NCBI GenBank assembly: GCA_934098565.1
Contig: CAKOON010000005.1
Coordinates: 32,066-96,065, forward strand
Direction: 5' to 3'
Length of the DNA: 64,000 bases
Source of the DNA: an uncultured Bacilli bacterium
GTDB taxonomy: Bacteria > Bacillota_I > Bacilli_A > RF39 > UBA660
Position numbers and translations under genes: made by a program. Within the stretch, counting starts at the first letter, position 1. Every line of letters begins with the position of its first letter. Positions 16,940-39,907 of the stretch are shown here, piece by piece. Under the pieces are notes generated by a model. It had not been told where the DNA came from, ran no database searches, and saw nothing but the letters and a program-made list of their open reading frames with translations.

Positions 16940-17866
16940 CTACAGTAGTTCTAAATATTTATTAAGTATTTCAATCTCTAAATCCGTAACCAATTTAATA
17001 AAGTCAGTATAATTTCCCGTTGTATGGGCTTTATCTAGGGCTTCGTAATATTTTAATCTTGCTTCTTTCTTTACAATAACTGGTAAATAGCCACTATGCA
17101 TTAAATCTAAATTCATAAGTAGTCTAGAGGTTCTGCCATTGCCATCAATAAAGGGGTGAATTTTCACGAGTTCTCCATGTAATAAAGCAGCCCTAATTAT
17201 TGGATGATATTTATCCCAAGTCTGATAATTAACAATAAGTTTTTCCATCAGTTCTGGTAATTTTAAGTAGTCAGGTGGAATATGAACGGCACCTTTAATA
17301 GTAACATTTTCTCTTCGATAGCGACCAGCATTTTCGTTATCAATACCCTTTAGTATTAATTCATGAATACTTTTTATATTCCACTCTGTAATTGGATTTT
17401 CTTCTTTAACTAAGTCATCTAAAAATAAAATAGCCTGTTCATGATTTATAGCTTCTAAATGTTCTTTAATTGATTTGCCACCAACAGTAATCCCCTCTAA
17501 AACCACTTGTGTCTCTCTTAAAGTTAAGGTATTACCCTCAATACCGTTACTATTATAGATCCATTCTAAATTGATGGTTTCTTTTAATGATTGTAATGTT
17601 TTTTTAGATATAGGTCTTTTACTATCTAATTTTCTTTTTAAATTATCTACTTCATCAAAATAATCATCGTCTAAGTTAATTATAAAATTCTCTTCATCTG
17701 GTTTAATTATTCTTTTATCAACTGGTTTACTAGCAGAGGCTGGAATATTCCAATTACTGCCAACTTTAATGGCTCCTTCAATTCTTCCTTCTTGAAGTAA
17801 TTGCCTTATTCTTCTCTCACTAATGCCCCAGTTTTTTTCTGTTTCTTTAGTAGTCATGTATTTCAT
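16940..17866 (-). CDS. HTH-Fic family protein (auto-inhibited Fic AMPylase type)
   Basis: It has the N-terminal HTH WGISERRIRQLLQEGRI, the inhibitory motif SNGIEGN ((S/T)xxxE(G/N)), and the catalytic HPFIDGNGRTSR (HxFx(D/E)GNGRxxR). The Shine-Dalgarno AGAGGTGA lies 5 nt before the ATG. Confidence 0.9.
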   Translation of the reverse strand: MKYMTTKETEKNWGISERRIRQLLQEGRIEGAIKVGSNWNIPASASKPVDKRIIKPDEENFIINLDDDYFDEVDNLKRKLDSKRPISKKTLQSLKETINLEWIYNSNGIEGNTLTLRETQVVLEGITVGGKSIKEHLEAINHEQAILFLDDLVKEENPITEWNIKSIHELILKGIDNENAGRYRRENVTIKGAVHIPPDYLKLPELMEKLIVNYQTWDKYHPIIRAALLHGELVKIHPFIDGNGRTSRLLMNLDLMHSGYLPVIVKKEARLKYYEALDKAHTTGNYTDFIKLVTDLEIEILNKYLELL

Positions 17867-18244: not shown

Positions 18245-18270
18245 CAAAAAAAGAACTCATTAAGAGTCCC
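18245..18270 (-). terminator. Rho-independent terminator closing the Tad-like operon
   Basis: The minus-strand RNA is GGGACUC UUAAU GAGUUC followed by U7, immediately after the stop at 18274. Confidence 0.65.
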
Positions 18271-18273
18271 AAT

Positions 18274-19062
18274 TTAACCATTCATCATCTGCATTACAGC
18301 AAGAACTAGTAAAATCATAACACCAAGACCAGTAGAAATAAGCATACTCATAGTCTTATTTTCCATCTTATCTAATCTTTCTTTATACTTCGTATCACGA
18401 GCTTTTTGTTGAAGATTAGAAATAGAACGAGAGAAGTTTAATAACTGTTCTTGTTTTCTATCTTGACGGCCTAAACCTAAACGATAAAGTAAACGCATCA
18501 TACGCATCGAGTCACGAACCGGATAAGTACGAGCAAATTCCATATAAGGTTCGATTGAACTATCACCGGAGTTAATCTTGGCAATCATTTCTAGTAAGCC
18601 TTTTTTAAAGATTTCAGGAGCAGTATCAACACTTTTACCAATGGCTACGGGTACTGTATAGTGTTGAATTAAGATTTCTAAACCTTTTAAGTAGTGTGGT
18701 AACATGGCATCAATCGTATGCAAGTTATTTTTATAATAACTTTTTAAGTTAGAATAACTTGATTTAAAGATTAGAATACCAGCAACAATGGCCACAATTA
18801 CATAAATATAACTAAACTTATTAATAAAGAAACAAACAACTAATAAAGCGGTAACTAAACCTTGAGTAATTCTTTTTCCAAATAAGTAGTCAGGATCTAC
18901 ACCTTCTCCATATTTAGTACGAACTAAAAAGTCATAATCACTTTCTTTAAATCTTAAAAAGTACCCTACGTTATCATTAATACATTTTTTAACATCAATA
19001 ACTTTGGTTTTATTTAAAATAAAGATGTATAAAGCGGATAATCCTAAAATTTCAAAATACAT
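18274..19062 (-). CDS. TadC-like platform protein (GspF/T2SS-F fold)
   Basis: 262 aa. The topology is TM helices, then a cytoplasmic helical domain (LPHYLKGLEILIQHYTVPVAIGKSV...PEIFKKGLLEMIAKINSG), then a C-terminal TM helix. It is positioned after the CpaF-type ATPase. Confidence 0.6.
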   Translation of the reverse strand: MYFEILGLSALYIFILNKTKVIDVKKCINDNVGYFLRFKESDYDFLVRTKYGEGVDPDYLFGKRITQGLVTALLVVCFFINKFSYIYVIVAIVAGILIFKSSYSNLKSYYKNNLHTIDAMLPHYLKGLEILIQHYTVPVAIGKSVDTAPEIFKKGLLEMIAKINSGDSSIEPYMEFARTYPVRDSMRMMRLLYRLGLGRQDRKQEQLLNFSRSISNLQQKARDTKYKERLDKMENKTMSMLISTGLGVMILLVLAVMQMMNG

Positions 19063-19064
19063 AT

Positions 19065-19967
19065 TTACTCAACCCCCACATCTTCATTGTAATATTTTTC
19101 GCCCGTAAGTAAGAAGTAGCAGTTAATAATAATAATTAAATGTAAAATTAATTTAACATACCACATATCAAGTAGTTTAATATAAGAGTCTTTACCAAGA
19201 AGAAATTGCATAACCGCCGCTAGTAAGAACAAGGCCATCCCGAAAGTTAAGAACTTCTTATGGAAATTAGCTCTATCCATTCTATCACGGTAGACACTTT
19301 CAACTAAGGCATCGATATCTAAAGACATATTTTCTAAAGACTCTCCGGCATCACGGGAACCTTCTTTAGTTATCTGATAGAACAATTGGTGCATGTTTTT
19401 AACCATATAATATGGATACTTTTCATTAAAGTAAGCAATTGATTGGTCAATAGTACCATTAGCGTAAGCCATGTCAATCATCGTTTTCACATCATCGACT
19501 ACGGGTTTTTCTAAGATACCAGATTCAACAACACCCTCTAGGGACTTAACAAAACTCTGAGTAGTATTAAATTCCATGATAACATTAGTAGTATAAGTCT
19601 GAATTTGTTCGAAAATATATTCGGAATAAATTCTTTGCGTACGTAAATACGACAAGTAAGGAATAAAGGCTATCGCAATAGCCGCATAGATTATTGTTAT
19701 AAAGAGATTGTAGAAGTAAAGATAAGCAATGCCACCCGCAACAACGCCAAATAAAACGACTTGACTAATATATTGTTTAACGGTATATTCTTCACCTAGC
19801 TCTTTAGTTTTTTCCCGTACTTGTTTAAAACTATAAGGAGCATACTTATCATAAAGACTAGTAACCCCATTCTGGATGAATTTAAAGGCTCCTTTAGCGC
19901 CATCCGTGGCATTCATTCGATATGAGAATGCAAAGAGTGCTAAAGCAATTAAAATTATTAATTCCAT
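19065..19967 (-). CDS. TadB-like platform protein (GspF/T2SS-F fold)
   Basis: 300 aa. It has an N-terminal TM helix, central TM helices, a helical domain SFVKSLEGVVESGILEKPVVDDVKTMIDMAYANGTIDQSI, and C-terminal TM helices. It lies 2 nt from the next gene. Confidence 0.6.
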   Translation of the reverse strand: MELIILIALALFAFSYRMNATDGAKGAFKFIQNGVTSLYDKYAPYSFKQVREKTKELGEEYTVKQYISQVVLFGVVAGGIAYLYFYNLFITIIYAAIAIAFIPYLSYLRTQRIYSEYIFEQIQTYTTNVIMEFNTTQSFVKSLEGVVESGILEKPVVDDVKTMIDMAYANGTIDQSIAYFNEKYPYYMVKNMHQLFYQITKEGSRDAGESLENMSLDIDALVESVYRDRMDRANFHKKFLTFGMALFLLAAVMQFLLGKDSYIKLLDMWYVKLILHLIIIINCYFLLTGEKYYNEDVGVE

Positions 19968-19977
19968 ATTCTTCCTC

Positions 19978-21315
19978 CTATAAAATTTCTTCTGGGATTG
20001 AACTAGTTGTATTCACTTGGCTTATTTGATTTGTATGATTCATGCTACTTAAAGTATTTAAGGCATTACTACCAAGACCAGCAGGTATACCATTAGTAAT
20101 ATTAGTTCCTAAATTTGGCTGTTGTCCTAAAGAGTTAGGATTTTGACTACCTTGGATATTTTGGTTAGTTTGATTAGAACTATTGCCATTAGTAGTCCCC
20201 TCTTCTTCCTTATACTTTTTTAAATCAGCCTCAATATCACCATCATACTCACTATTAGTTCCTAAATGGAAAGTATCTTTATCTAACATAACATTTTGAA
20301 TACCTAAGTAATCTAATAAGTGTTGGGTTGGATTTTTTAAGATATAATGTCCATCTAAAGCTTTTTTATAGATTTCATTAGTTTGAGGTTTATTATTTTC
20401 ATCAACATAGAACTCACAAATTTCAATGATTTCTCTTTGAAAACGATTAAATTTCTTACTAAAATAACCTTTAACATAAATACCAATTTGAACATAACGA
20501 TGAATAGTATTTAAGAACTGTTCGACATCTTGACTGGACTCCATCAAAGAATACATACGTAAGGGAATTGATGAAGCTTTATCGGCATGGATTGTGGAAA
20601 GTATATTATGACCGGAAGAGATAGCATTACGAACAGACATAACGGCCTCCCCAGAACGAACCTCGGATAGTAAAATCCAAATAGGGTTCTGACGCATGCA
20701 GGCTACTAAGACATCAGTGTAACTACAGATATTATTAGTCTTCATGGCCACGATATCACGATGCGGGAAAATGCGGTCCAAATGTAATTCCAAGGTATCT
20801 TCAATGGTAATAATTTTTTCATTCTCTTTAATATTCGATGCTAAGTATTTAAGAAGCTCGGTTTTACCAGAACCAGTCTCTCCAGCAACAATGATGTTAG
20901 CATGTCCAGCAACACATTTCATTAAAAAATCATGCAATGTTTCGGTAATATATTCTTCATTAATTAGTTTTTGTTTATTAAGACGGATTTTAGCGGGAGT
21001 CTTACGGATAAGACAAGCAATTCCGTTCGTAGCAATCGATTCATGGATGAAATTCATACGGAGTTCGGCGGATTCAGCATCTAACAAGGGGTGCGCCATA
21101 TTGAAGGTTTTCCCCATGACATTAGAACACTGAAAGGCTAATTTTTCCATAAAAGTATTATTAATATCGGGACGTTCTACTTGATAAACACCTTTTGATA
21201 GAGTTTTTAACCAAACTTGACCATTATTAGAATAAGAAATATCGGTAATATCATCATCGGCTAAGAATTCGGCCAAGGGACCGAAGTCCATTTGTTCAAA
21301 GATTGCTTCATTCAT
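19978..21315 (-). CDS. CpaF/TadA-type secretion ATPase (T2SS-E/VirB11 superfamily) with an N/Q/S-rich C-terminal tail
   Basis: DITDISYSNNGQVWL, RMNFIHES...LIRK, Walker A GETGSGKTELLKYL, Asp box IITIEDTLEL, Walker B ILLSEVR and His box LSTIHA are present. The last roughly 85 aa are low complexity. Confidence 0.85.
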   Translation of the reverse strand: MNEAIFEQMDFGPLAEFLADDDITDISYSNNGQVWLKTLSKGVYQVERPDINNTFMEKLAFQCSNVMGKTFNMAHPLLDAESAELRMNFIHESIATNGIACLIRKTPAKIRLNKQKLINEEYITETLHDFLMKCVAGHANIIVAGETGSGKTELLKYLASNIKENEKIITIEDTLELHLDRIFPHRDIVAMKTNNICSYTDVLVACMRQNPIWILLSEVRSGEAVMSVRNAISSGHNILSTIHADKASSIPLRMYSLMESSQDVEQFLNTIHRYVQIGIYVKGYFSKKFNRFQREIIEICEFYVDENNKPQTNEIYKKALDGHYILKNPTQHLLDYLGIQNVMLDKDTFHLGTNSEYDGDIEADLKKYKEEEGTTNGNSSNQTNQNIQGSQNPNSLGQQPNLGTNITNGIPAGLGSNALNTLSSMNHTNQISQVNTTSSIPEEIL

Positions 21316-21330
21316 AAATTACCCTTCTTT

Positions 21331-22104
21331 CTAATTAGTTATGGTTTCTGTTTTATTATAAATATAACTTGTTATTTCTTCGGTTGAAACAGTTGTTGAA
21401 CCTTCTTCTTTAGTATAGTTAGAGTTTCTTGGTACGGGAATAATTTCAACATTACTAACGTATTCACTCTTCTTTAAAAGGTCAAATAAGTTATCTTCAA
21501 CTTCGAATAGTAAAGCAGCTGGGGTACCTCCGGATAAAGTATTTTCTAAAAGAGAATTACCACTAGAGTCTTTAATGGCTTTAATCTTAATAGATTTAAC
21601 TAAGATAGCCATCATGACTTTACCGTTATCTTTAGCTTCCATGTAAAGGTCGATATAGTCTCCGGGACGGAAACGATTCGAATAGGTTGATTTATTATTA
21701 ACTTTTAAGGAGTAAACAGTATAACCATCTTGCATATTCATAAAAGCATAATCAGGCATTTCTTCTTCTTTTAAGACGGATTCCGTATAAAATAAACTCT
21801 TCGCAGGAATATCTGTGGAATAACTAGAATAATAGTTAATTAAATCCTTATCAGAAGTTATAATGTTTTTAGCATTTTTAACTAAAGTACGAGGGACTTT
21901 AACGTGACCAATCATATCTTTCGTAATTTGAGTTTTTCTTGGTATTTCTTTTAGAGCATAAGGAATACTTACTAAGTCAATACTTTTATTAACACGGTAG
22001 TTGTAACCGATTACTAATACAAGAACCCCAGCTAAGATACAAAGAATGGTAACGGTATTTTTATTTTGTAAAAATCTTTTAATTGGTGCTAGTGCATTTT
22101 TCAT
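21331..22104 (-). CDS. CpaB/RcpC-like SAF-domain protein, paralog 2
   Basis: It has an N-terminal TM helix and YNYRVN, a SAF-like IPYALKEIPRKTQITKDMIGHVKVP, and a C-terminal RPGDYIDLY...IKIKAIKDSSGN...TPAALLFEV pattern typical of CpaB. Its start shares a TAATG with the upstream stop. Confidence 0.7.
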   Translation of the reverse strand: MKNALAPIKRFLQNKNTVTILCILAGVLVLVIGYNYRVNKSIDLVSIPYALKEIPRKTQITKDMIGHVKVPRTLVKNAKNIITSDKDLINYYSSYSTDIPAKSLFYTESVLKEEEMPDYAFMNMQDGYTVYSLKVNNKSTYSNRFRPGDYIDLYMEAKDNGKVMMAILVKSIKIKAIKDSSGNSLLENTLSGGTPAALLFEVEDNLFDLLKKSEYVSNVEIIPVPRNSNYTKEEGSTTVSTEEITSYIYNKTETITN

Positions 22105-22919
22105 TAGTTATTCGCCTCATTTCCATTAGTATTAGGAGTATTATAATTTTGACTGACACTAATTGATTTCGAAAGAATGAAGTTTTGAATGTATTGGGAA
22201 TCGATAGTGGCATCACGGTCAGTTGTGGAATAACTAGCGTTTCTTGGAATTGGCATAACACTAATACCACCTATATACTCAGTCTTCTTTAAAAGGGTAT
22301 ATAATTCATCAGGAACAGCAAACCACATTTGGGCTGGGGTTCTTTCTTCGGTTGATGATTCAAAGACATCATTACCACTAGAGTCTAGAACGGCTAGAAC
22401 CTTAATTCCTTGAATTAAACGGCCAAAGATGACTTTATTAGTACTAGAAGTAGCTTTAACAAATAAGTCAACATAATTACCTGTATAAATAGAATTTCCA
22501 TAGGTCGAGTTGATATCAACCGCTAAGTTATAAGCAGTATACCCATCAGGAATATTAGAAAATTCATTAGTAGTAGCTTCTTCAAAAGAGACAATATAGT
22601 CTTTATAGAAGAAACTGTTAGCAGGAATAGTTTCCCCGTATTTAACATAGTTACTAGTGATATTCGCACTCGAAGTGATGATACCAAGACTTTTAGCTAT
22701 TCTTTTTGGTAATTCCGTATAGCCAATGGCATCTGCCGTAATTTGACTACGACTAGTTAATTCTTTTTTCGCATAAGGGACTCTAATAGTGGTTACAGCT
22801 TGATTAACACGGTAGTTGTAAATGGCATATAAGCCAATAATACCGATGATAACAATGATTATTGTTAAAGTATTCTTATTCGATAAGACTTTTTTTAGTT
22901 CTTCTTTTATTTTATCCAT
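22104..22919 (-). CDS. CpaB/RcpC-like SAF-domain protein, paralog 1
   Basis: It is collinear with the downstream paralog: NKNTLTIIIVIIGIIGLYAIYNYRVNQ, VPYAKKELTSRSQITADAIGYTELP, GNYVDLF...IKVLAVLDSSGN...TPAQMWFAV. Confidence 0.7.
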   Translation of the reverse strand: MDKIKEELKKVLSNKNTLTIIIVIIGIIGLYAIYNYRVNQAVTTIRVPYAKKELTSRSQITADAIGYTELPKRIAKSLGIITSSANITSNYVKYGETIPANSFFYKDYIVSFEEATTNEFSNIPDGYTAYNLAVDINSTYGNSIYTGNYVDLFVKATSSTNKVIFGRLIQGIKVLAVLDSSGNDVFESSTEERTPAQMWFAVPDELYTLLKKTEYIGGISVMPIPRNASYSTTDRDATIDSQYIQNFILSKSISVSQNYNTPNTNGNEANN

Positions 22920-22935
22920 TTTTATTCTCCCTTAT

Positions 22936-23748
22936 TTAATCTATTTTATTTAGCCAGCCCTTAGAGATAGCGTAACCAATAATGCCACTTGTTGTGTTAG
23001 AAGCGGCCGCACTAGTTTCTCTAGTTGGATCGTTGTTAATAAATTCATTTAGAGAATCACTACCAAAGGAACGGCTAAAGTCTAAAATCATCGCTTTAAT
23101 AAATTCTGACCAGTAAGTACCAACATTATTATCAACTTTACTAGCGTTACCATTTTGGCTAGCCCACTTTCTTAAATTTGGTAAATTAGCACTCAAAATA
23201 CGATTTCTTAAGTCTTGATTTAAACCATCAGTACCAGTTTCTTTTAAGACTTTTTGTAAGGTGATAGCAAGTTCTGGGGTTGGATTATAAGTTAAACATT
23301 TTTGAACACCATCGCCCCCGGTTGTACTCGAAGTAGTTCCTTCAGAACCACCAATTAAAACCATATCAATTTTGTTAACTAAATCAAAACTATTGTTAGT
23401 TGTATTAGCAATATTAACAGAGTTACTAACGCTAGAAATTTTAACACTTACTTTGGGTGGTACTTCGTGAATATCATAAAATGATATATTGTACTCTTTA
23501 GTCATAGTAGCTGATTCGGAGAAACGACGAATGAAGTTTTCAATAAACTTTTCTTTAGAAATCTTTAAATCACCATATAAACGATAATATGAGTAGTCGA
23601 CAGCATCAACCATCGATGCTGATGCTGTTTCCTTTAACTCGTAATAGTCTTGGGTAGTTCCGGTAGTGGTACTACTAATTAGAAGCATTACGCCTATAAC
23701 TAGGATACCTAGCATTACTAACCAGTAGCCCCAGTAAGATTCTTTCAT
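22936..23748 (-). CDS. N-terminally anchored extracytoplasmic protein, unknown family
   Basis: 270 aa. It has a single N-terminal TM helix (WLVMLGILVIGVMLLISS) and no prepilin G/FTLIE or Flp motif. Confidence 0.55.
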   Translation of the reverse strand: MKESYWGYWLVMLGILVIGVMLLISSTTTGTTQDYYELKETASASMVDAVDYSYYRLYGDLKISKEKFIENFIRRFSESATMTKEYNISFYDIHEVPPKVSVKISSVSNSVNIANTTNNSFDLVNKIDMVLIGGSEGTTSSTTGGDGVQKCLTYNPTPELAITLQKVLKETGTDGLNQDLRNRILSANLPNLRKWASQNGNASKVDNNVGTYWSEFIKAMILDFSRSFGSDSLNEFINNDPTRETSAAASNTTSGIIGYAISKGWLNKID

Positions 23749-23765
23749 TTTCTTCTACCTCTTTT

Positions 23766-26700
23766 CTATTTTAAATAACTATCTATCTTACAAGATGAGT
23801 ATTCACTATTTGAAGAAATATCAGCTAGGAATTGTGATTTATATTCACGAGATTCTTTACTTATAGAACTTGCACTATAGTCACCAAATCCTAAATCGAT
23901 TATTTCTTGATTTTTGTTATATGTTTTAATTGCATTCATACAAGCTGAATTCATAGTAATAGAGTATTCTAAGTACTTTTCATCATCAGCATAAATACCA
24001 TCACCAACATCTTCAATTTGTTTAATGATATCACTTAAATTTTGTTTAGAACCATCAGTAGTATTTTCAACGCCAGAAGTTTTACCACTCCAGTTATAGC
24101 CTTTAGATGAATTACCATTAGGGAATAAGTCATAGTTAGATACAGTCTTTGTATAGAATTGTAAAGTACCATTATTACCAATTAAAGCAGAATTATTATT
24201 AGTAGTTATAGTTGTTTGAAGAGCACTATCTTCACCATATAATTTAATACCTTGGCAATGAGTTTTACATACATTGTTATAAGTTTCATTGCTGGCTGGG
24301 ACTTTAGTTGCTTCTACATAGCTACAACAAGTATCACCATCTGCTAATAGTTTATTAATACAAGCATTAGCTTTATTTTCGTATTCTTCATATAACTTGT
24401 CATCTTTATTAGTATGAAGAAATAAATCTAAGTAAGATTTTTCATCATCATTTTGACAATCAGATGATTTTAAGATATCTTCACAACTTGGAATAACAGT
24501 ATCTGGTTCTGCTTTAACTTCGTAGTTACATACATATTGGTTAGCAAGAAGTCCACTAACATAACCATTATTATCAACAATACGTCCTTGGGAATAAGTA
24601 TTATTGTAGTACTGACCTAAGTTATTAATTTCAATTTGATAACTGTATTTACCTGGCATTGTCGATAAAGCAATTGGATATACTAAACCTTCAGCTTTTT
24701 TCTCTGAACCATCAACTGTTACGATGTCAGTATTTTTAATAGCTTCATCACCAGTATCAACTAGGATTGGAGCTTCAGTTGTATCATTAAAGTTATTAGG
24801 ATTTGTTACATAGATACCTTTATTAGAATATGTCCAATATGGTTGACTAGATTTATAATAAATAAATTTTTGGGAACCTTGACCATTAATACTTGAGACA
24901 ACATCGTTTACTTTATTTAAGAAACCAGAAGTAGTTCCGCCGACTTTACCAGTAGCCCAAGTAGCGATATTAGATAGTAAACTTTGTAGGTTGAAACCAG
25001 CAATTGACACACCTGGATTACCATATCTTGAAATAGTAGCAACACGTTTAACATTACGGTATTTAACATTTTGACCATCTTGAACATGGGCAATTAACTT
25101 AGTAACAATTGAAGTCTCTAAACCTTTGAAGTCTCCTCTAGCAATAGATGAAGTAGCATCTTTAAAGACATTAGAAGTTCCTTTGTAACTTAAGTCATAA
25201 GCAATTGAACCTGGTATATAAGTATTAATTGAACCAGAAACATCATCATCTGATGATAAACCGAATAAATTGCATAGCTTTTCATTATTACTACAAATAT
25301 TATTAGTAAATTCTTGAACAGCTGGAATTTCTTGAAGATTACTAAATAGTTGCCCAAGGACTTCTTTGTTATTATTAAAGAACTGAGCTACATCGTTTGA
25401 ATTATTACCACTAAGAAGTGCAGCGGCGATGCTACCAAGCATACCATCAGATGTTACACAGGTTCCATCCATAATGTTATTCCAGTCTTGGATTTTATTA
25501 ATATCAACGTCTTTATAACAGTAATATGTTGAAACATCGGGACTTTCTTCTTTATTAATTGCTTTTAAAGTAATACTATTAGTTGTTTTGTTGTTCTTAT
25601 TAGCAATGAATTCTAATAAGTTATTATTTTTATAGCCGTAAGTGAATGTTATCTCTGGGTCCATTTCATATTCTTTGTCCCAAATTGTACAAGCATTCAT
25701 GTTTGTTGCTTTTTCTAAAAGGTCTGTACGATAATTTTCATATTCGTCTTTATATTTACGCATTTGTTCTCTAATACTTGCTATATAGGCATAGTATGGA
25801 CTAAATGTTCCTCTTAAGTAATAATAACCATCGAAAGCATAATCTAAAACATTAGAGATATCTTTTTCAGTTGAAGATAATATATCTTTGGCATCACCAA
25901 CAGCCTGGAAGATTTCATTTACAGTTGAAAGAATACTTGTGATATTATCTAAATTGCTGCTAAAACTTGAAGAATTAAGTTTTTTAATACTTTTTTTGGT
26001 TGGGTTTTTAAGCGATTCAGTAGCATTTTGGATGGCGTTAAATGTCACTTGAACATTACCAATAGCTTTGGTTGTAGTGTTAGCACTCTTTTTAAATGAC
26101 TCGACACTTTTTCCTAAATTTTTATAATTGAAGTAAATACCAAAATACATGGTTTTCATTATATAACTATCCGGATCCATTATCCAAATTTTAATTTGAT
26201 TTCCAGTGGTCTCCGCATTTACATGTTTAACTGTGTCTTTAACAAATTCTGAGCTTAGCTTAGTTTCATTAGTAGAAGCATCAGCAAATTTAAAGACATC
26301 TGTGTCATAGCTATAAGGTTGAGCTTTTTGGATATTAAAGATTTTTACAGTTGATTGAGTAGCATCATTTACTCTAGTTACGCCTTCTTTTACAGCCGTT
26401 GAAGCTTGAGCATAAATTTGGCAAACGTCAGCACCAAGAACTCGTCCTAAATTACATAAGAAAGTTATAAAAGTTTTTCCAATAGCAGATACTGCGGCCG
26501 AGCCAAGACTTTTTAGGCTTGTTTTAGCTAGATTACCGACTTCCTGCGCTATTGTATCTTTGATACTATCAATAGATTTACCGATTTTATCTTTATATTG
26601 TTCATATGAATCGCCAAATGATGTTTCTGCTGATTGCTTGAAGGCGTTAGTAATTGTATCAGAATTTAAATCACCACTAAGAAATTCTCCAGCAATGTAA

Positions 26701-29700
26701 GTTGCAAAACTTTCCATACTATTAGTAAAATTGCCTTGGATTCTCCAGAATTCTTCACCAGTAGAAACACCAAGAGCTTCACTAATAATTTTATCTCTAA
26801 TTGTTGCTAATGATGATGACAGCTGGGTTTTAAATTTTAACATAATATCGGTAGTATCAATTGGTGAAACATCACTTTGAACACGTTCATCAACTGGCTC
26901 TGTAACTATAGCTTGTCTAAATGAAGAATACTGATTGATATAGTTATTATAAGCGTCTAACATTTTTTGCTTTGTATTAGCAGCTTCACTTAAATATTTA
27001 GTATTATCAATAGAAGTTGTAACACAAGTTCTTTGACCGGCAACACCAACCGTTGCATGATAAACATTATCTAAATTTGTGGAAATATATCGGCCAGCAT
27101 AAGTAACTCCTAGGTTACCTGGCATTTTAAAGGCATAATCTTCTTTACAAACAATTTTACAATAGTCATTAGCAGTTTGAACAGTATATGAATTACCATT
27201 TGGGTCAGTAGCTTCTACCCCATTCTCACCAATTATACATTTCTCCCAGTTAACGGTAAACGAACTAGTAATGGAATCCACTAGACCAGAAACCGAACCT
27301 AAATTAGTCGCATTCATAACTTGATCTTTAATAGAACCTAAGTAATTTAGAACACCGTTTAACCCATCACCGGTTGAAGAAATTACAGTTTGAATGGTAC
27401 TTGAAAATGATAAGATATTAGTCATTATTTGGTCCATACCAGTGGCTTGAGCTAAATAATCAACTAAGTAAGATGAAGCTTTGGCAATATCTTTTAAACT
27501 AGAAGCAGAAGAGGCACTATCAACAGAGTTTTTAAGAGCTTCTAATAAATTTTTGGTATCAGTAGATATCTTAGTATTACTAGCAGCTTCATAAATTTCA
27601 GCCCACTCTTTTTTTACGTTATCATAGCCATTATCCGCAACGTTAACCATTGTTTCTAAGAATAGTTTAGATAAAACTTTGAAGTTATCTTGAGCAGTTC
27701 CATTAAAGTTAACATTGTTAAGGGCTTGACTTAAAAATCTAGCGGTCTGGTTTTGATTATTAGTATATAACGAATCTAAAAATTTCAATTCATTTTTGAT
27801 ATTCTTAGTAATATTTACTTTATCAGCAAAGTTATAAAGTAAAGCACTTGAGTTCTTTAATCCACTTATAGATAAGCCATTTAGGCCAACATCCTTAAGT
27901 AATTGAACCATAGAAGTAGCATTACCAACTAAAGTTCTTAAATCCCCAATACTATTAATACCACTCATAACAGAATTAAATAAAGTTCCAGATTGCGTTC
28001 CTTCAATTAAATAGAAAACCGTTTCTGAATTAGTACAAGGAAGAGCAAAAGTTGCACGACAAGTGTTTTCTTTTTTCTTACCCATATCAATTGGAATTTC
28101 TTCTACTTTTTCAGCAGCCCCATTATTGAATGCTAAGAATTTCTGATAATTTTTAGTACCGACTCCAGTATGAGTTTTAGTTGAAGTTAAAATCAAAATA
28201 TTAGTTATGGACTTTTTAGAAACATAATTAGTAGTAACTCTAAGTTTAATAGAATCACTTTCGCCTAAAGATTGAGAAACATTCTTTTTAGTTACTTTAA
28301 ATTTAGCAACAGTGTAGCCGCTAGAATCTCTAGTCCAGTCGCTTACAGTTGTAATGTCGGAGTCATCAATTGTTATAGTTGTCCCACCATCAGTAACAGC
28401 AGTAATCTTAAAGTTTTCTTTACTAGTTGCTTCCGTTATTAAGCGGTCATCATCACTTTTTAATTTAACGCTAAATGTTACTTCAAAACCGGTATTTGAC
28501 TCAATTGTCTTTGGAGTTTCATACTCTACTTTGAATTCTACTTCGTTCTCCGCTTTAGTAATAGGTTCATTGCCATTAGCAAACGCTGTTACATCATTGT
28601 AAACTTTTTGAAGCATAGAATCGGCTTTAGTAAATTGTTTTTTGTTATAGCCATCGAAAGCTGCTCTTAATTCCGGACAATCGGCATAGTTACATGCTTT
28701 TCTAGGATTAGTAACAGAAATACCACCATTAACAAAGATTAACATTCTAGCAACGTTATTTAAAACGTAATCAGCATAATCTTCAGCTCTAGTACCACTT
28801 GTTCCAGAGGCACTTTTTATTTCATTATAATTTGTTTCATCAGCATACCAGTTAGAATATAAACGGTATAATCCACGCCATAGTTTAGAATCTTCTTTAA
28901 TTATGGTATTTGGCTGGGAAACATATTTAACACCGGTTGATTCTGGTCCAGTAGCACCTGGATCAATACAGAAAGCTGTAATTGGCGTTGTTTTATCTTG
29001 GCCATCGCAAGTATAATATGTTTTGTAAACGTTATAATAGTTATGGGCTCCTACTGGTGATTTGAATAAAGAATCATTTTTATAACTTCTTTCATCTCTG
29101 ACTATAAATTGAGTGCAAGCATTTTTACCATAAGAACTACTGCTATTAGCTTGACTAATAACTTCACCAGTTTCAGTATCTACAGTGGTTGCAGGTAAAG
29201 GTTCATTTAACTTTTCACAAGCATTTCTAGTAGTTGCTGATTTAGAAGTATCAGTTTGACGATACTTACTAGATTCAGCAGCTTCACTAGCTTTCATCCA
29301 CTTATAAGTAGTAACATTATTTATTTTTACTTGATAACAACTTTCAATATCATTATTGCTGCTACTTTGATCATTATTGCTTGAGCAAAAACTGCTTTCT
29401 ACAGTTTGATTACGGCCACAGCTGCCAGTAGCAGTTTTATAATTTCCGGAAGGAAGTTTGCAACAAACATTTTTATTAGAATCACCATTATCGCTTAATT
29501 TTACTGTTATATAAATCAATGCCGTATCAACTTTATTATTATAACTGTATTTAACTTGAGCAGAAATGCTATCTAACTTATTAGGCATTTTCTTAAGTTG
29601 GTCAGCAGTAACTTTAACTCTCAAAGTTATATCTGAAACATTCAAACCAGAGCCACTATTTTCGTAGCTAGTTTTATATGTTGCAATTTTATTTTCATCA

Positions 29701-29921
29701 TACGTAATTGTAATATTAGATTCAAGAGTTATGGCATTCTTATTAACGCCAAGGTCTTTGGCAATTAAATTTTTAATACCAATTCCTTGATTAATATACC
29801 CATCATTTTGAACATAAAGAGTTTGGCCAAGGGTTTTAGCCTCTGGGCTTAACATTTTAAAGTTAAAAGCAAAAATGCTTAATAATAAAATTAATATTAC
29901 TTTTTTAATACTACTTTTCAT
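23766..29921 (-). CDS. Giant secreted protein (2051 aa), Cys-paired, with a long helical centre; unknown family
   Basis: It has the signal peptide MKSSIKKVILILLLSIFAFNF. I counted about 34 Cys, mostly in close pairs, plus a long central S/N/L-rich helical-looking region. There is no LPXTG and no C-terminal TM helix. Its start overlaps the upstream stop (TAATG). Confidence 0.8.
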   Translation of the reverse strand: MKSSIKKVILILLLSIFAFNFKMLSPEAKTLGQTLYVQNDGYINQGIGIKNLIAKDLGVNKNAITLESNITITYDENKIATYKTSYENSGSGLNVSDITLRVKVTADQLKKMPNKLDSISAQVKYSYNNKVDTALIYITVKLSDNGDSNKNVCCKLPSGNYKTATGSCGRNQTVESSFCSSNNDQSSSNNDIESCYQVKINNVTTYKWMKASEAAESSKYRQTDTSKSATTRNACEKLNEPLPATTVDTETGEVISQANSSSSYGKNACTQFIVRDERSYKNDSLFKSPVGAHNYYNVYKTYYTCDGQDKTTPITAFCIDPGATGPESTGVKYVSQPNTIIKEDSKLWRGLYRLYSNWYADETNYNEIKSASGTSGTRAEDYADYVLNNVARMLIFVNGGISVTNPRKACNYADCPELRAAFDGYNKKQFTKADSMLQKVYNDVTAFANGNEPITKAENEVEFKVEYETPKTIESNTGFEVTFSVKLKSDDDRLITEATSKENFKITAVTDGGTTITIDDSDITTVSDWTRDSSGYTVAKFKVTKKNVSQSLGESDSIKLRVTTNYVSKKSITNILILTSTKTHTGVGTKNYQKFLAFNNGAAEKVEEIPIDMGKKKENTCRATFALPCTNSETVFYLIEGTQSGTLFNSVMSGINSIGDLRTLVGNATSMVQLLKDVGLNGLSISGLKNSSALLYNFADKVNITKNIKNELKFLDSLYTNNQNQTARFLSQALNNVNFNGTAQDNFKVLSKLFLETMVNVADNGYDNVKKEWAEIYEAASNTKISTDTKNLLEALKNSVDSASSASSLKDIAKASSYLVDYLAQATGMDQIMTNILSFSSTIQTVISSTGDGLNGVLNYLGSIKDQVMNATNLGSVSGLVDSITSSFTVNWEKCIIGENGVEATDPNGNSYTVQTANDYCKIVCKEDYAFKMPGNLGVTYAGRYISTNLDNVYHATVGVAGQRTCVTTSIDNTKYLSEAANTKQKMLDAYNNYINQYSSFRQAIVTEPVDERVQSDVSPIDTTDIMLKFKTQLSSSLATIRDKIISEALGVSTGEEFWRIQGNFTNSMESFATYIAGEFLSGDLNSDTITNAFKQSAETSFGDSYEQYKDKIGKSIDSIKDTIAQEVGNLAKTSLKSLGSAAVSAIGKTFITFLCNLGRVLGADVCQIYAQASTAVKEGVTRVNDATQSTVKIFNIQKAQPYSYDTDVFKFADASTNETKLSSEFVKDTVKHVNAETTGNQIKIWIMDPDSYIMKTMYFGIYFNYKNLGKSVESFKKSANTTTKAIGNVQVTFNAIQNATESLKNPTKKSIKKLNSSSFSSNLDNITSILSTVNEIFQAVGDAKDILSSTEKDISNVLDYAFDGYYYLRGTFSPYYAYIASIREQMRKYKDEYENYRTDLLEKATNMNACTIWDKEYEMDPEITFTYGYKNNNLLEFIANKNNKTTNSITLKAINKEESPDVSTYYCYKDVDINKIQDWNNIMDGTCVTSDGMLGSIAAALLSGNNSNDVAQFFNNNKEVLGQLFSNLQEIPAVQEFTNNICSNNEKLCNLFGLSSDDDVSGSINTYIPGSIAYDLSYKGTSNVFKDATSSIARGDFKGLETSIVTKLIAHVQDGQNVKYRNVKRVATISRYGNPGVSIAGFNLQSLLSNIATWATGKVGGTTSGFLNKVNDVVSSINGQGSQKFIYYKSSQPYWTYSNKGIYVTNPNNFNDTTEAPILVDTGDEAIKNTDIVTVDGSEKKAEGLVYPIALSTMPGKYSYQIEINNLGQYYNNTYSQGRIVDNNGYVSGLLANQYVCNYEVKAEPDTVIPSCEDILKSSDCQNDDEKSYLDLFLHTNKDDKLYEEYENKANACINKLLADGDTCCSYVEATKVPASNETYNNVCKTHCQGIKLYGEDSALQTTITTNNNSALIGNNGTLQFYTKTVSNYDLFPNGNSSKGYNWSGKTSGVENTTDGSKQNLSDIIKQIEDVGDGIYADDEKYLEYSITMNSACMNAIKTYNKNQEIIDLGFGDYSASSISKESREYKSQFLADISSNSEYSSCKIDSYLK

Positions 29922-30637
29922 TAAACAATTTCCTCCTTTCTCTTTTTATTTCGTAGATATATAAAGGTACCAGTACCACCAATTATTATCAAGATAACAA
30001 TAGTAACTATAACCCAGTGTTTCTTAACAAAATTAGTAGTTTCTTCCAAGAAACCTTCTTTTCTAGTTTCATCATTAACACTTTTATGAGTCTTAGCATA
30101 TTCATTAATACCATTAACAAAGTCAATATAAGCTATATCATCAGCAGTCATAAATTCTTGACAATAAAAATAATCAGGATAATCACTACAAATTGATTCA
30201 TTATAATACTGGTTAGCTCTTGGTACTGTAACATTTATCTGTCTAATAGCTTTCTTACCACACTCGGTATCAACCGGATAAATTGAAATAGTATATTCTT
30301 TAACTTTTCCCATACCCCCAGTAGAATAAGATACTTCCCCATCAGTTTCCGGATCATAATCAAGACGATATTTAGAACTATCATATTCTAAGATAACATA
30401 AATATCACTAGTTAAATTATAAACGTCAATCATGCCTAAGTATGAAGTTCCGGTTATCTCTTCCCCACTATCTGGGTCCGTACTCGTATAATTATAAGAA
30501 TAAGGATAGCCCTTAGCAGTTACGGCCCCAGCCGCATTATTAAGTTCAGCCTGGCGTTCTAAAGTACAATATTCTGCTTTTACTTTAGGAATAAAAAGTA
30601 AACTTAAGAGAAAAAATAGTAAATATTTTCTTTTCAT
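29921..30637 (-). CDS. Type-I membrane protein (signal peptide plus C-terminal TM anchor), unknown family
   Basis: 238 aa. The signal peptide is MKRKYLLFFLLSLLFIPKVKA/EY, and the C-terminus is WVIVTIVILIIIGGTGTFIYLRNKKRK. Confidence 0.6.
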   Translation of the reverse strand: MKRKYLLFFLLSLLFIPKVKAEYCTLERQAELNNAAGAVTAKGYPYSYNYTSTDPDSGEEITGTSYLGMIDVYNLTSDIYVILEYDSSKYRLDYDPETDGEVSYSTGGMGKVKEYTISIYPVDTECGKKAIRQINVTVPRANQYYNESICSDYPDYFYCQEFMTADDIAYIDFVNGINEYAKTHKSVNDETRKEGFLEETTNFVKKHWVIVTIVILIIIGGTGTFIYLRNKKRKEEIV

Positions 30638-30647
30638 GTTAACCTCC

Positions 30648-31523
30648 TTAGACGTTTTCCGATTTTATAAATCGATAATTTTTATCGAATGTATATTTGA
30701 TAGATGGCATACCTTCAGTATTTTTACAATCTTCTAAAACACGACCATTAGATATATAAATTTCTGATAAAGTAGTTTCACAATAAACTTTTTCTTTAAA
30801 GGCACTATCGTAAACTCCATACTTCATATCACCATCAAATTGCATGACATTAAAATAATACTTAACAGATATTTCATAGCCGCTAGAAGTCTTTTCCAAA
30901 GAACCTTTTTCACTTTCATAAGAACCATCAGCATTTTCATCATCAGAACCTTCTTCATCAGTATAATCAACCATACTTATCGGTATCATACATTCAGTAT
31001 CATCGCAGATAACAGCATTTACTCCTCTAAAGAAGCCATCAGTTATAATTGTTTCTGGTTCCATTTTCAAATCTTTAAACTTAGCTGCTAAGGCTTTATT
31101 AATAAATTTTATGGATAATTTTACTGTACCTAACTCTGTATCTTCATCAAACATATTAGCACCAGCCATATATTTAATTAAATCCGAGTCATTAAAGAAC
31201 ATTCTACTTAAAGTATAAAGAATTTTTACATTAGTATTGATATCATCAGAGTATGTAGCTCCCCAATAAATCTCATCAACAGTACCAGTAGTATCAGTAC
31301 TGCCAATAAAGTCTTTAATGCTATCTTCATCAAATGGTTTAATAGCATCTTTTAAGTAATTTTCAAACTCATTAGTAGTAGGATTATCTGGGGTTAATTC
31401 TTTATCTTTATGAGTTACTTTAAATACTACAAAGATAATAAGTCCAATTAGAATTAGACCTATTAATATGGAAACTATTATTGTTTTTTTGTTTTTAAAA
31501 TCCACTTTTAACTTATTTTTCAT
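30648..31523 (-). CDS. N-terminally anchored extracytoplasmic protein, unknown family (first gene of the Tad-like operon)
   Basis: 291 aa, with the TM helix IIVSILIGLILIGLIIFVVF. I recognised no motif. Confidence 0.55.
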   Translation of the reverse strand: MKNKLKVDFKNKKTIIVSILIGLILIGLIIFVVFKVTHKDKELTPDNPTTNEFENYLKDAIKPFDEDSIKDFIGSTDTTGTVDEIYWGATYSDDINTNVKILYTLSRMFFNDSDLIKYMAGANMFDEDTELGTVKLSIKFINKALAAKFKDLKMEPETIITDGFFRGVNAVICDDTECMIPISMVDYTDEEGSDDENADGSYESEKGSLEKTSSGYEISVKYYFNVMQFDGDMKYGVYDSAFKEKVYCETTLSEIYISNGRVLEDCKNTEGMPSIKYTFDKNYRFIKSENV

Positions 31524-31626
31524 ACTTACACTTATCCTTCTCTATCTTAACTAATATAAGAATAACATTTTTTTTCCAAAAAAACAATTTAATATTACAA
31601 AAATGGCTATTTTTTTGCTAGTCTAA

Positions 31627-31655
31627 TTGACTTTAGGAAACGAATATGGTAAATT
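31627..31655 (+). promoter_or_regulatory. rpsD promoter
   Basis: TTGACT (31627-31632), a 17-nt spacer, then TAAATT (31650-31655), with TG two nt upstream of the -10 element. Confidence 0.55.
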
Positions 31656-31661
31656 ATTCTT

Positions 31662-31819
31662 GCGTTTAATTGGCAGTGCCTCTAGTTTATAGACGTGTCT
31701 ATCCCAGTTATGGTTATAAGTATCTATGACTGCCTAAAGAGAAAATATCTAGATAGACTCCCCTAGAAATAAAAGGTATTCTAAGTAAAAGCAAAATATA
31801 TGGAAAGGAGAATTATTTT
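31662..31819 (+). promoter_or_regulatory. Structured rpsD 5' leader, candidate S4 autoregulatory element
   Basis: This is an untranslated leader of about 160 nt. GGCAGT (31672-31677) can pair with ACTGCC (31728-31733). S4 autoregulation through the rpsD leader is established in Bacillus; applying it here is inference. Confidence 0.4.
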
Positions 31820-39169: not shown

Positions 39170-39907
39170 ATGAAAAATAATATTGAAAAGCTAAAGAAAG
39201 AAATCTACAAAATTCAATGTAAAAATTGGATTAAAAACACAGAAAAAGGTACTAGTTCGGCTGGTAAAATTTTAGAAAACCTGCTGGGTAAAGAGGACGA
39301 TAATTTTATTATAGCTGATTATCAAGGAATCGAATTAAAAACGAAGTTACAAAACAGCGAACCATATATCGGACTTTTCTCGATGGTGCCAGATAATCGA
39401 CCATTGATATTAAAAGAGATTTTAAATAAATATGGGTGGCCAAGCAAAAAAGATAGAAGATATAAAGTATTTTTTGGAAAAATAACTGGTAAAAAGGTTA
39501 ATAAAATAGGTTTATTTAACGATTTTAAATTAGAAGTTGATAATGAAAGCCAAGTGATATGGCTACTAATTAAAAATAAATATAATGGTTACATAAATAA
39601 AACAATTTCTTGGTCATATGAACAATTAAAAAATCGGTTGAAAATGAAATTATCTTACTTAGCTATCATTCCAGTTGATAAAAAGTATTATGGAGAAGAA
39701 AGTTATTTTAAATATCATAATCCCCAAATATATAGCTTTAAAAATTTTGAGACTTTCTTAAAATTAATCCAAGATGGTACGATTAGAGTCAATATGAAAG
39801 TAAGCTTTTATACCTCCCAAGACCGTTACGGCAAAATACAAGATAAAGGTACCACTTTTGAGATAAAAGAAGAAGATATTGAAAAATTATTTACTAAAAT
39901 AGAATAG
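39170..39907 (+). CDS. MutH/Sau3AI-fold endonuclease of the MvaI/BcnI type
   Basis: 245 aa. GTSSAGKILENLLGKEDDNFIIADYQGIELKTK parallels E. coli MutH GWIGVLLEIWLG...DFAALGVELKTI, giving the helix-G..LE..LG then D-x4-E-x-K catalytic motif. It has its own extended -10 element, TGTTAAAAT, at 39104-39112. Confidence 0.7.
   Translation: MKNNIEKLKKEIYKIQCKNWIKNTEKGTSSAGKILENLLGKEDDNFIIADYQGIELKTKLQNSEPYIGLFSMVPDNRPLILKEILNKYGWPSKKDRRYKVFFGKITGKKVNKIGLFNDFKLEVDNESQVIWLLIKNKYNGYINKTISWSYEQLKNRLKMKLSYLAIIPVDKKYYGEESYFKYHNPQIYSFKNFETFLKLIQDGTIRVNMKVSFYTSQDRYGKIQDKGTTFEIKEEDIEKLFTKIE

Follow-up and report, generated by a model that had tools for sequence, protein, structure and literature searches.

A Tad-like motor operon linked to DUF5411 and a giant cysteine-rich secreted protein in RF39-type gut Bacilli

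Among the described systems that come closest to the locus studied here, the Kil system of Myxococcus xanthus is a Tad pilus with interchangeable minor-pilin 'Tip' complexes (PMC12075869), and the uncultured gut Firmicute clade TANB77 encodes CpaB, TadA, a TadB/TadC fusion and pilin-like proteins that were unmatched by sequence (PMC11680825). For Roseburia, Ruminococcus and Eubacterium, a language-model classifier predicted a 'secretion-related' operon of 8–9 genes in which CpaF and DUF5411 occur together with a PilC/GspF-like protein and a large protein resembling cell-invasion proteins (Miller, Stern & Burstein 2022; PMC9523054); this was the only mention of DUF5411 in the literature that we searched. 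A module on the plasmid pLS20 has been listed as 'unknown' apart from the adhesin Tie (PMC8557374). Here, we describe a nine-gene operon on a 64,000-nt stretch of contig CAKOON010000005.1 from an uncultured bacterium of the RF39 lineage (the window, by which we mean the whole stretch analysed). The operon combines a Tad-like motor ATPase with a DUF5411 protein and a secreted protein of 2051 amino acids (aa). RF39-type Bacilli are very prevalent, uncultured and genome-reduced members of the human gut community whose contacts with the host and with other microbes are almost undescribed; the machine is ubiquitous in these bacteria yet entirely unannotated.

The nine open reading frames (ORFs) at 18274–31523 lie tightly packed on the minus strand and form one operon (Table 1). 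In the order of transcription their products measure 291, 238, 2051, 270, 271, 257, 445, 300 and 262 aa, the genes are spaced by 10, -1, 17, 16, -1, 15, 10 and 2 nt, and a Shine-Dalgarno sequence precedes each of the nine starts. A first-pass annotation, made from the DNA letters and the ORF translations, had described the same operon; its coordinates, gaps, TAATG stop/start overlaps (at 29921 and 22104) and terminator were re-derived, and topology prediction returned the signal peptides and transmembrane (TM) topologies which it had claimed. It had also named the distal ATPase a CpaF/TadA-type enzyme, which holds at the level of the clade: the 445-aa protein reaches 99 bits against T2SSE (PF00437, cutoff 24.9), and its translation carries the Walker A (GETGSGKT), Asp box (IEDTLE), Walker B (ILLSEVR) and His box (STIHA) motifs. 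CpaF is the top match among PDB sequences (70 bits), followed by FlaI (68) and VirB11 (66); comparison with NCBIfam gave 119 bits for VirB11, 105 for the TadA-type family, 102 for TrbB and 90 for FlaI, all below the family cutoffs. By these scores the enzyme is a hexameric-type ATPase of the CpaF/FlaI/VirB11 clade, within which it is equidistant from the subfamilies. Its C-terminus (window 19978–20280) is a low-complexity tail of ~100 residues rich in N, Q, S and T. Among relatives the length of the ATPase ranges from ~360 to 550 aa, the long-tailed forms occurring in the clade of the window.

Two paralogous genes directly upstream of the ATPase gene encode the CpaB/RcpC-like proteins that were already recognised in the first pass. 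The 271-aa protein passes the RcpC cutoff of 28.8 bits (29.7 bits) and shows a weak match to TIGR03177; the 257-aa protein stays below the cutoff (22.7 bits). A single family built from hidden Markov models (HMMs) covers both, with 114 matches in 73 of the loci described below. In the 40 family members compared with Pfam, RcpC was matched in 37, SAF in 12 and ChapFlgA in 11; the family profile found no match among PDB sequences. A related gene set is present on a plasmid of Priestia koreensis, in the order Ig-like large protein, DUF5411, SAF protein, weakly ParA-like protein, CpaF/VirB11, 'type II secretion system F family protein' and hypothetical protein, and the CpaB-like profile matches its SAF-domain protein with E=1.8e-36. 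The operon position of TadZ holds the second CpaB paralogue in the window; on the Priestia plasmid, a weakly ParA/AAA_31-like protein stands at this position, as TadZ does in Tad/Flp loci.

The ATPase gene is followed by two genes for polytopic membrane proteins, M300 and M262, which are the most conserved parts of the operon (59–98% identity; 65–98% for M300 across all loci). Neither protein matched a family in Pfam or NCBIfam. When distant members had been added to the profiles, comparison of M300 with M262 by hhalign gave a probability of 94.6% and E=7e-8 over 156 columns; with the narrow profiles used before, the score was not significant. The M300 profile matches the F-family protein of the Priestia plasmid (E=1.6e-12), the M262 profile matches the gene after it (E=1.4e-14), and the F-family protein itself reaches 24.2 bits against Pfam T2SSF in the right region (cutoff 25.2; E=3.4e-5). 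Proteins of 486–613 aa were found in which an M262-like region forms the C-terminal half (P0371, P0378, P0392, P0399 and P0406); presumably, they are M300–M262 fusions, with full-length GspF/PilC and the TadC-TadB fusion of TANB77 as analogues. The AlphaFold2 model of M262 is all-helical (pLDDT 69) and has no significant match in the PDB; its highest-probability Foldseek matches were five structures of GspF cytoplasmic domains (EpsF and OutF). Because M300 is connected through the Priestia F-family protein to T2SSF, and because of the paralogy, the fusions and the weak Foldseek matches to GspF, M300 and M262 probably form a TadB/TadC-like platform, the GspF fold not being demonstrated by sequence. 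The description of the pair as 'GspF-fold' proteins in the first-pass annotation is thus suggested by the paralogy and the Priestia link, and lacks a direct T2SSF or PDB match. The M262 family is large: a database of 5.8 billion proteins contains over 7,464 of its clusters (90% identity), none of them annotated, and at 50% identity there are 634 representatives.

Relatives of DUF5411 were found in at least 163 species-level genomes. Genes were called in 84 loci, 79 of which were retrieved via DUF5411 and 5 via homologues of the giant protein and many of which are cut by contig ends, and families were built by iterative HMMs. DUF5411 is present in all 84 loci. For the other families the counts are 74 (B238, the family of the secreted 238-aa protein), 73 (CpaB), 69 (ATPase), 68 (M300) and 63 (M262), and contig ends explain most of the gaps. 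Without exception the genes are arranged as B238, large protein, DUF5411, one or two CpaB, ATPase, M300 and M262; the part from DUF5411 through CpaB and the ATPase to the two membrane proteins is identical in at least 60 loci and on the Priestia plasmid. This order, as well as the chromosomal site between rpsD and ruvAB, is kept where the giant is only 40% identical. The DUF5411 gene of the window is 97% identical to one from 'uncultured Tenericutes bacterium UMGS735', and farther relatives are labelled Mycoplasma sp. CAG:956, CAG:472, Coprobacillus sp. CAG:605, Clostridium sp. CAG:609 or 'uncultured Bacilli'; we take labels such as UMGS735 and CAG:956 to denote RF39-type gut Bacilli with small genomes.

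The large protein that precedes DUF5411 is part of the same conserved set. A search with the single sequence of the giant finds only 21 homologue clusters. Four blocks of the giant (residues ~260–362, 886–1006, 1370–1461 and 1675–2040) recur in proteins of 900–1,550 aa encoded at the same position, and iterated profiles of blocks B, C and D (the last three) detected 73–75 of the 76 large proteins preceding DUF5411. Blocks B and D are rich in cysteines whose positions are invariant, and B238, which is always encoded directly upstream of the large protein, has four conserved Cys residues (C24, C126, C150 and C159); this fits extracellular, disulfide-stabilised domains. On the block profiles, the giant of the window is an expanded orthologue, about doubled in size, of a universal Cys-rich partner of ~1,100 aa. 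No meaningful match was obtained for the giant in Pfam and NCBIfam, for its blocks B and D in the PDB, or for B238 in any of the three. In related genomes the homologues of the giant were always linked to the partner genes, motor-less extra cassettes aside, and this linkage bears out, physically and evolutionarily, the proposal of the first-pass annotation that the motor is coupled to the giant and its small partners. Its further proposal, that a Tad motor may have been recruited to a non-canonical cargo, is not supported by the same counts, as the large protein, B238 and DUF5411 belong to the universal core of the system and are no lineage-specific addition.

The giant is probably a surface adhesin or effector. 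Of the 76 large proteins, 50 carry, in a consistent place near the N-terminus, a [YFL]C[ILVM][DNE] motif (FCID at residue 317 in the window), which we assume to be the cysteine motif of thioester domains. Pfam TED matches 2 of 69 large proteins (best E=0.012) and TED_2 matches 1 of 69 (E=0.006), and the partner glutamine of a thioester was not identified in these proteins. One might hypothesise a thioester adhesin here, for which the Pfam support is marginal.

The 270-aa protein encoded between the giant and the CpaB-like proteins matches DUF5411 (PF17424) with 177 bits. Thus, the earlier statement that the four proximal genes fit no family stands for the 291-, 238- and 2051-aa proteins and fails for this one. 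It consists of an N-terminal helix, a conserved core of 130 aa and a clade-specific helical C-terminal domain, and from Met1 through the TM helix the family is nearly invariant (consensus MKESYWGYWLIlLGIF..., window MKESYWGYWLV..LG). In the window clade DUF5411 measures 270 aa as compared with about 135 aa elsewhere, the gain being a helical C-terminal extension. The AlphaFold2 model has an overall pLDDT of 65 and of about 87 for residues 150–270, and a Foldseek comparison of the model with the PDB returned nothing below E=2.

In most relatives the operon continues behind M262. Of the 48 loci whose flanks are complete (at least 3 kb after M262), 38 have such a tail of small genes, which encodes two proteins of ~80 aa (T81 family, N-terminus MKEATGELNMTVVTVVAIAAV), two of ~150–165 aa (T165 family, N-terminus MREAIGGTWLFQIVI), one of ~330 aa and one or two of ~115 aa with two TM helices; the tail proteins matched no known family. 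A head of the form ^M[KR]E[AS].{1,3}G is present in 147 of the 1,352 called genes, and all 147 are DUF5411, T81 or T165; among 481 unassigned genes it was not found once. Because this head is exclusive to DUF5411 and the T81/T165 tail families, DUF5411 is probably a leaderless pilin-like adaptor. At the level of the motif, we read DUF5411, T81 and T165 as putative pilin-like subunits that share a class-III-like head of a non-canonical kind, either very short or uncleaved.

The tail families are absent from all 17 loci of the window clade, from a six-frame translation of the window (E<=10) and from 10 kb beyond each end of the window. As judged from these searches, the window lineage has lost, in cis, all pilin-like subunits except DUF5411. 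This clade alone combines the lack of tail genes with A291, a C-terminally extended DUF5411 and a giant of double size. A291, the N-anchored extracytoplasmic product of the first gene, matched no family in Pfam and NCBIfam, and its homologues occur only in 15 loci in the range L001–L017, which is the window clade. It was considered as a substitute for a tail gene and rejected, as hhalign revealed no similarity to the tail families beyond the TM helices. The window lineage represents a natural minimal version of the system (motor, one pilin-like protein and giant) which could reveal its essential parts.

Canonical Tad parts were sought in the window and in 10 kb on each side of it. A regular-expression search of ORFs of at least 25 aa found no Flp, class III or archaeal-type signal, the sole pilin-signal match being an internal segment of a DUF805 membrane protein. 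No A24 prepilin peptidase was present in the flanks or among the polytopic ORFs of the window, which are M300, M262, two ABC transporters, the DUF805 protein and one spurious ORF. A deviant Walker A motif of ParA/TadZ ([KR]GGxGK[ST]) was found neither in the flanks nor in window ORFs of at least 80 aa; the P-loop ORFs of the window are RuvB, two T2SSE ATPases, two ABC transporters, an AAA protein and two chance motifs. In the search for TadE, TadF and TadG, the operon proteins gave no TadE or Tad Pfam match at E<=1, and the DUF5411 head MKESYWG differs from pseudopilins and has no G/xxxxE motif. The possibility raised in the first pass that the 270- or 291-aa proteins are TadE/TadF pseudopilins is not supported by these results, the former being DUF5411. 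The reported absence of an Flp pilin, an A24 peptidase and TadZ was confirmed for the range searched, while the reading that the operon has no pilin at all is not supported, given the exclusive head which DUF5411 shares with the tail families.

Together, B238, the large protein and DUF5411 make up a cassette which is conserved and can be duplicated. Extra cassettes were observed in cis (L019, L020, L021, L041, L047 and L069) and on other contigs of the same metagenome-assembled genome (L012 with L016, L013 with L017, L021 with L032); those of the window clade include A291 (L004 2802–12444, L015, L016 and L017). Distant paralogues of the giant in the window clade, ~2,400 aa in length, carry an N-terminal Peptidase_M23 domain, and cassettes of this M23 type (A291, B238, giant and DUF5411) have no adjoining motor; A291 travels with the cassette in such second loci. 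As motor-less cassettes keep DUF5411 beside the large protein, DUF5411 appears to be a coupling element rather than a dispensable one, and the modularity of the cassettes, reminiscent of the 'Tips' of Kil, supports a role of DUF5411 in joining large proteins of variable type to one common motor. Three motor-less cassettes have, behind DUF5411, a gene whose product has a sortase-like N-terminal region, a membrane anchor followed by VVGTIAIENTDF (L044 11270–12010, L046 11257–11988 and L058 10497–11210), which hints at covalent wall anchoring in some variants. A gene of ~260 aa after DUF5411 in motor-less cassettes was considered as a CpaB homologue and rejected, since it is not CpaB-like.

A divergent gene trio lies upstream of many DUF5411 operons (e.g. 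L022 4160–6210, minus strand, with equivalents in 19–40 loci) and is absent from the window. It encodes a membrane-anchored metallophosphoesterase, a CPBP/Rce1-type intramembrane protease and a PedC/TrbB-like thiol-disulfide isomerase, and may process the Cys-rich and pilin-like proteins or form their disulfides. A CPBP protease gene is also located upstream of the adhesin gene of the Enterococcus faecium plasmid pZB18 (L086 2641–3087).

The best plasmid matches of the ATPase are 'CpaF/VirB11 family' proteins with 30–33% identity from Bacillus pLS20-like plasmids, Enterococcus pZB18 and Listeria plasmids. In this plasmid family the order, with the gene numbers of pLS20, is the Tie adhesin (gene 34), a 126-aa N-anchored protein (36), 'VirB11' (37), membrane proteins of 268 and 243 aa (38 and 39), a 120-aa protein (40), a duplicated 47-aa hydrophobic protein (41), a 2-TM protein and VirD4 (PMC8557374); in pZB18 the position of the 2-TM protein is that of TrbC/VirB2. 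The M262 profile matches the second membrane protein of a Peribacillus pLS20-type cluster (E=1.9e-8), and the T165 profile matches plasmid-encoded 120-aa proteins (E=3e-6 and 2e-4). Gene-36-type proteins are weak relatives of DUF5411, with E-values of 1e-6 and 4e-3 for an HMM of the N-domain and of 3e-4 and 6e-3, below the cutoff, for Pfam DUF5411. Proteins of the M300 type are encoded on 363 plasmids of the Bacillus group, among them B. anthracis plasmids of ~181 kb (pXO1-size; H66–H75) and conjugative plasmids of B. thuringiensis; almost all of them bear the annotation 'hypothetical protein'. Plasmids of the pLS20 family encode, beside the VirB11-like ATPase, duplicated proteins of 47–60 aa (MLDQNADRMYWVIGAVLVVGALIGLAEKEFPGLL) which in size and shape resemble Flp-like mini-pilins (L087 3577–3890; L086 8011–8163; L088 8890–9307 and 13092–13238); these are listed as 'unknown' in the paper on this plasmid family (PMC8557374).

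The modules of the pLS20 (genes 34–45), pZB18 and pXO1 type resemble the window locus in encoding, in the same order, an adhesin, a DUF5411-like protein, CpaF/VirB11, two membrane proteins of matching topology, a ~120-aa protein matched by T165 and tiny hydrophobic proteins. Unlike the window locus, they sit inside a type IV secretion system (T4SS; VirB4, VirD4, VirB6/8 and TrbC/VirB2), have no CpaB-like genes in the regions seen, and encode adhesins of the TED/SpaA type and not the Cys-rich blocks B–D. The sequence links between them are weak (E from 1e-8 to 4e-3). The window locus is a cousin of the plasmid module and not a conjugation system. The link to genes 36–41 of pLS20 provides a tractable Bacillus subtilis surrogate for Tad-like motors in monoderms, which could show whether Gram-positive conjugation uses a filament-type device.

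As compared with Tad/Flp systems, the operon has an ATPase of the same clade with CpaF as its top PDB match, one or two CpaB/RcpC-SAF proteins, and a paralogous pair of half-size polytopic proteins right after the ATPase, in the order CpaB-ATPase-platform-platform. It differs from them in that Flp (G/xxxxEY), TadE/F, an A24 peptidase and TadZ are missing from the window, that the platform proteins stay below the T2SSF thresholds, that the ATPase is equally distant from FlaI and VirB11, and that DUF5411, B238 and a large Cys-rich protein are obligate partners in the window-type system. With TANB77 it has in common the origin from an uncultured gut Firmicute, a Tad-like cluster and pilin-like proteins unlike known pilins; TANB77, unlike the window, has TadZ/CpaE and seven pilin-like genes in cis, and no DUF5411 or giant was reported for it. 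The Kil system likewise uses a Tad motor and owes its specificity to tip modules which vary, can be duplicated and present large domains, comparable to the duplicated B238–large protein–DUF5411 cassettes, and the minor pilins of type IVa pili with PilY1 are a further parallel of a tip complex. Kil differs in having the Flp major pilin KilP, the prepilin peptidase KilA and TadE/G-like minor pilins; between Kil and the cassette proteins, homology was not detected at the sequence level, so that the analogy is a functional one.

The operon predicted in Clostridia is similar in its 8–9 genes, in CpaF, the GspF-like protein, DUF5411 and the large protein, and in that its other genes are unrecognisable. 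From the shared DUF5411, CpaF and GspF-like composition only, we infer that the two are orthologous; the tail, the shared head, the cassette duplication and the pLS20 link are absent from the account given for Clostridia. The first-pass annotation knew of no described system with this gene set. In fact, an operon of DUF5411, CpaF, a GspF-like and a large protein had been predicted (PMC9523054), and the Priestia plasmid is annotated likewise. This kind of system has therefore been flagged computationally before and is experimentally uncharacterised; the window form is tail-less and has an expanded giant and A291. What is new, as far as we found within the searchable literature, is the distribution across RF39, the N-terminal head shared exclusively by DUF5411, T81 and T165, and the connection with pLS20 genes 36–41.

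We see an even chance that the operon encodes a monoderm Tad-like machine of the type IV filament superfamily which deploys a surface complex of DUF5411, B238 and the large protein, with DUF5411 acting as a stub or piston in the window lineage. In such a machine, the two membrane proteins would form a TadB/TadC-like platform and the CpaB-like proteins a conduit through the envelope. Platform and motor would extract the N-terminal helix of DUF5411 from the membrane, and the globular part of DUF5411 would hold the large protein, in the way that minor-pilin tips hold PilY1 or the 'Tips' of Kil. This tip complex would, in most relatives, sit on a short filament composed of the ~80-aa and ~150–165-aa M[KR]E[AS]xxG proteins; in the window lineage a stub or piston of DUF5411 only would push the giant through the wall and anchor it. 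As paralogues of the giant carry an M23 hydrolase domain and the plasmid module accompanies the Tie adhesin, the role would probably be attachment to host surfaces or to other cells, and a long Flp fibre would not be the product.

Several observations weigh against this reading. Beyond the ATPase and CpaB, no component reaches the threshold of a curated family. Concerning the platform, Pfam T2SSF was unmatched in M300, in M262 and in 65 members of the M300 family, and neither the family profiles nor a broadened profile of the two proteins found a match among PDB sequences. The EpsF/OutF matches of the M262 model have probabilities of 0.16–0.44, TM-scores of 0.44–0.49 and E>1, and hhalign against E. 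coli GspF/HofC aligned the expected cytoplasmic region, but with E=0.05 and a thin template. The pilin-like nature of DUF5411 is deduced from the shared N-terminal motif and the topology; profile-profile scores of its N-terminus against T81, T165 and T116 were not significant, and its AlphaFold2 model is of low confidence in the N-terminal half and shows no pilin fold match. A physical coupling of DUF5411 to the large protein is deduced solely from the adjacency of their genes, and the thioester idea is weakly backed by 2–3 TED matches in 69 proteins at E about 0.01. Finally, ~84 kb were inspected, and tail-type genes as well as a processing peptidase may lie elsewhere.

This last point leads to the rival explanation that survives best, namely that the system is a conventional Tad-like pilus whose small or Flp subunits and peptidase were relocated in the chromosome, the operon being its motor-plus-tip half. 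The presence of small subunits in cis in 38 of 48 relatives speaks for it, and so does the extent of the inspected DNA, RF39 genomes being estimated from general knowledge at about 1.5–2 Mb. Tad loci with tadV or flp elsewhere in the genome are known, for example in Bifidobacterium breve. In addition, the window contains a second T2SSE ATPase, missed in the first pass, which is of the true PilB/GspE class and carries a CPKC...CKNC zinc motif. It is an orphan: its neighbours are a 308-aa AAA protein (58208–59134, minus strand) and a 129-aa ORF (59231–59620, plus strand), and no PilC, pilin or peptidase gene was found near it. An orthologue with 94% identity and the same AAA gene adjoin the M23-giant cassette in L004. 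Its presence makes a second filament system in the genome likely, and with it other filament genes, possibly including a prepilin peptidase. Against relocation, none of the 17 window-clade loci, which come from several species with a giant of 40–99% identity, has tail genes within 10 kb. The correlated DUF5411 extension, doubled giant and A291 suggest compensation over relocation, and even the tail-bearing relatives have no A24 peptidase gene within 10 kb. We consider relocation unlikely on balance, though it deserves to be taken seriously.

Another reading goes further than the deployment of a surface complex by a Tad-like machine and proposes a motor without a filament. A leaderless, peptidase-independent DUF5411 piston, used by the CpaF-like motor, would thread the disulfide-rich giant through the envelope and hold it there in order to latch onto other cells, with an M23 wall hydrolase added in paralogous giants, and genes 36–41 of the pLS20/pZB18/pXO1 type would be the missing apparatus for mating-adhesin presentation, or 'pilus', of Gram-positive conjugation. 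We regard this as doubtful and put it forward as speculation. If it is true that the pilin-like head needs no A24 peptidase, the rules for subunits of type IV filaments would be extended.

It is improbable, in our view, that motor and platform form an export device resembling a type II secretion system (T2SS), which releases the giant as cargo and has no pilin-like element. To our knowledge, all known members of the motor superfamily (T2SS, type IV pili, Tad and archaellum) act on pilin-like subunits, and DUF5411, whose pilin-like head is common to it and the tail proteins, is invariably present; moreover, motor-less cassettes still pair DUF5411 with the large protein. Export would agree with the Sec signal peptides of the giant and B238 and their strict co-inheritance with the motor, with the failure to find a canonical pilin, and with the classification of the related Clostridia operon as 'secretion-related' (PMC9523054). 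Least of all do we believe that the operon is a remnant or domesticated conjugative element (a T4SS of the pLS20/pXO1 type) for DNA transfer: the closest plasmid relatives of the ATPase, of M262 and of the DUF5411-like and T165-like proteins do occur in pLS20-, pZB18- and Peribacillus-type conjugation operons near VirD4 and TrbC/VirB2, but VirB4, VirD4, a relaxase and VirB6/VirB8-like proteins were not found in the window (P-loop ORFs and Pfam matches of the neighbours), the retention of the rpsD-ruvAB site at 40% identity of the giant indicates long vertical inheritance, and the plasmid and phage collections searched contain nothing similar at the nucleotide level.

Table 1. Coordinates of the operon genes, its flanking signals and the second secretion ATPase in the 64,000-nt window.
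Feature	Coordinates	Strand	Evidence
Leader/promoter region, operon vs divergent rpsD	31524–31819 (296 nt)	-	promoter-like matches weak
A291, 291-aa N-anchored extracytoplasmic protein, 4 Cys	30648–31523	-	TM helix 15–33
B238, secreted 238-aa protein with C-terminal TM anchor	29921–30637	-	signal peptide and TM 203–221
Giant secreted Cys-rich protein, 2051 aa	23766–29921	-	Sec-type signal peptide, 34 Cys
DUF5411 protein, 270 aa	22936–23748	-	PF17424, 177 bits
CpaB/RcpC-like protein 1, 271 aa, N-terminally anchored	22104–22919	-	RcpC 29.7 bits
CpaB/RcpC-like protein 2, 257 aa, paralogue of protein 1	21331–22104	-	RcpC 22.7 bits
Secretion ATPase, CpaF/FlaI/VirB11 clade, 445 aa	19978–21315	-	T2SSE 99 bits
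M300, polytopic, 300 aa, probable TadB/TadC-like platform subunit	19065–19967	-	five hydrophobic segments
M262, second polytopic membrane protein, 262 aa, M300 paralogue	18274–19062	-	hhalign; AlphaFold2
Intrinsic terminator, operon end	18246–18270	-	GGGACTC-TTAAT-GAGTTCT: 7-pair stem (3 GC), 5-nt loop, T-run
Second T2SSE ATPase, true PilB/GspE class, 543 aa	56425–58056	+	345 bits GspE, 339 PilB

The locus is chromosomal, with rpsD and two M16 peptidase genes on one side and Fic, ruvA, ruvB and pcrA on the other. The window is AT-rich (~30% G+C) and matches a 165-kb contig of a Hadza gut metagenome. A plasmid or phage origin of the 14-kb locus was considered and rejected, since megablast searches of plasmid and phage collections were empty and the flanks are housekeeping genes. 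The promoter-like matches of the operon leader reach 9/12 and lie at 31806–31778 and 31843–31815; a riboswitch was also considered there and discarded, as no Rfam family matched the leader. Directly downstream of the operon terminator lies a Fic/DOC-family gene (16940–17866, minus strand) with its own sigma-70 promoter, a perfect 12/12 match at 17913–17885, followed by two ORFs of 413 and 204 aa without family assignment. These three genes are confined to the species of the window, and other genes are found at this place in relatives. Elsewhere in the window, we observed a PIN_8-domain protein (4366–5652, minus strand), an MvaI/BcnI-family restriction endonuclease (39170–39907, plus strand) and a T-box leader (53426–53607, minus strand) upstream of a gene for an 846-aa aminoacyl-tRNA synthetase resembling ValRS.

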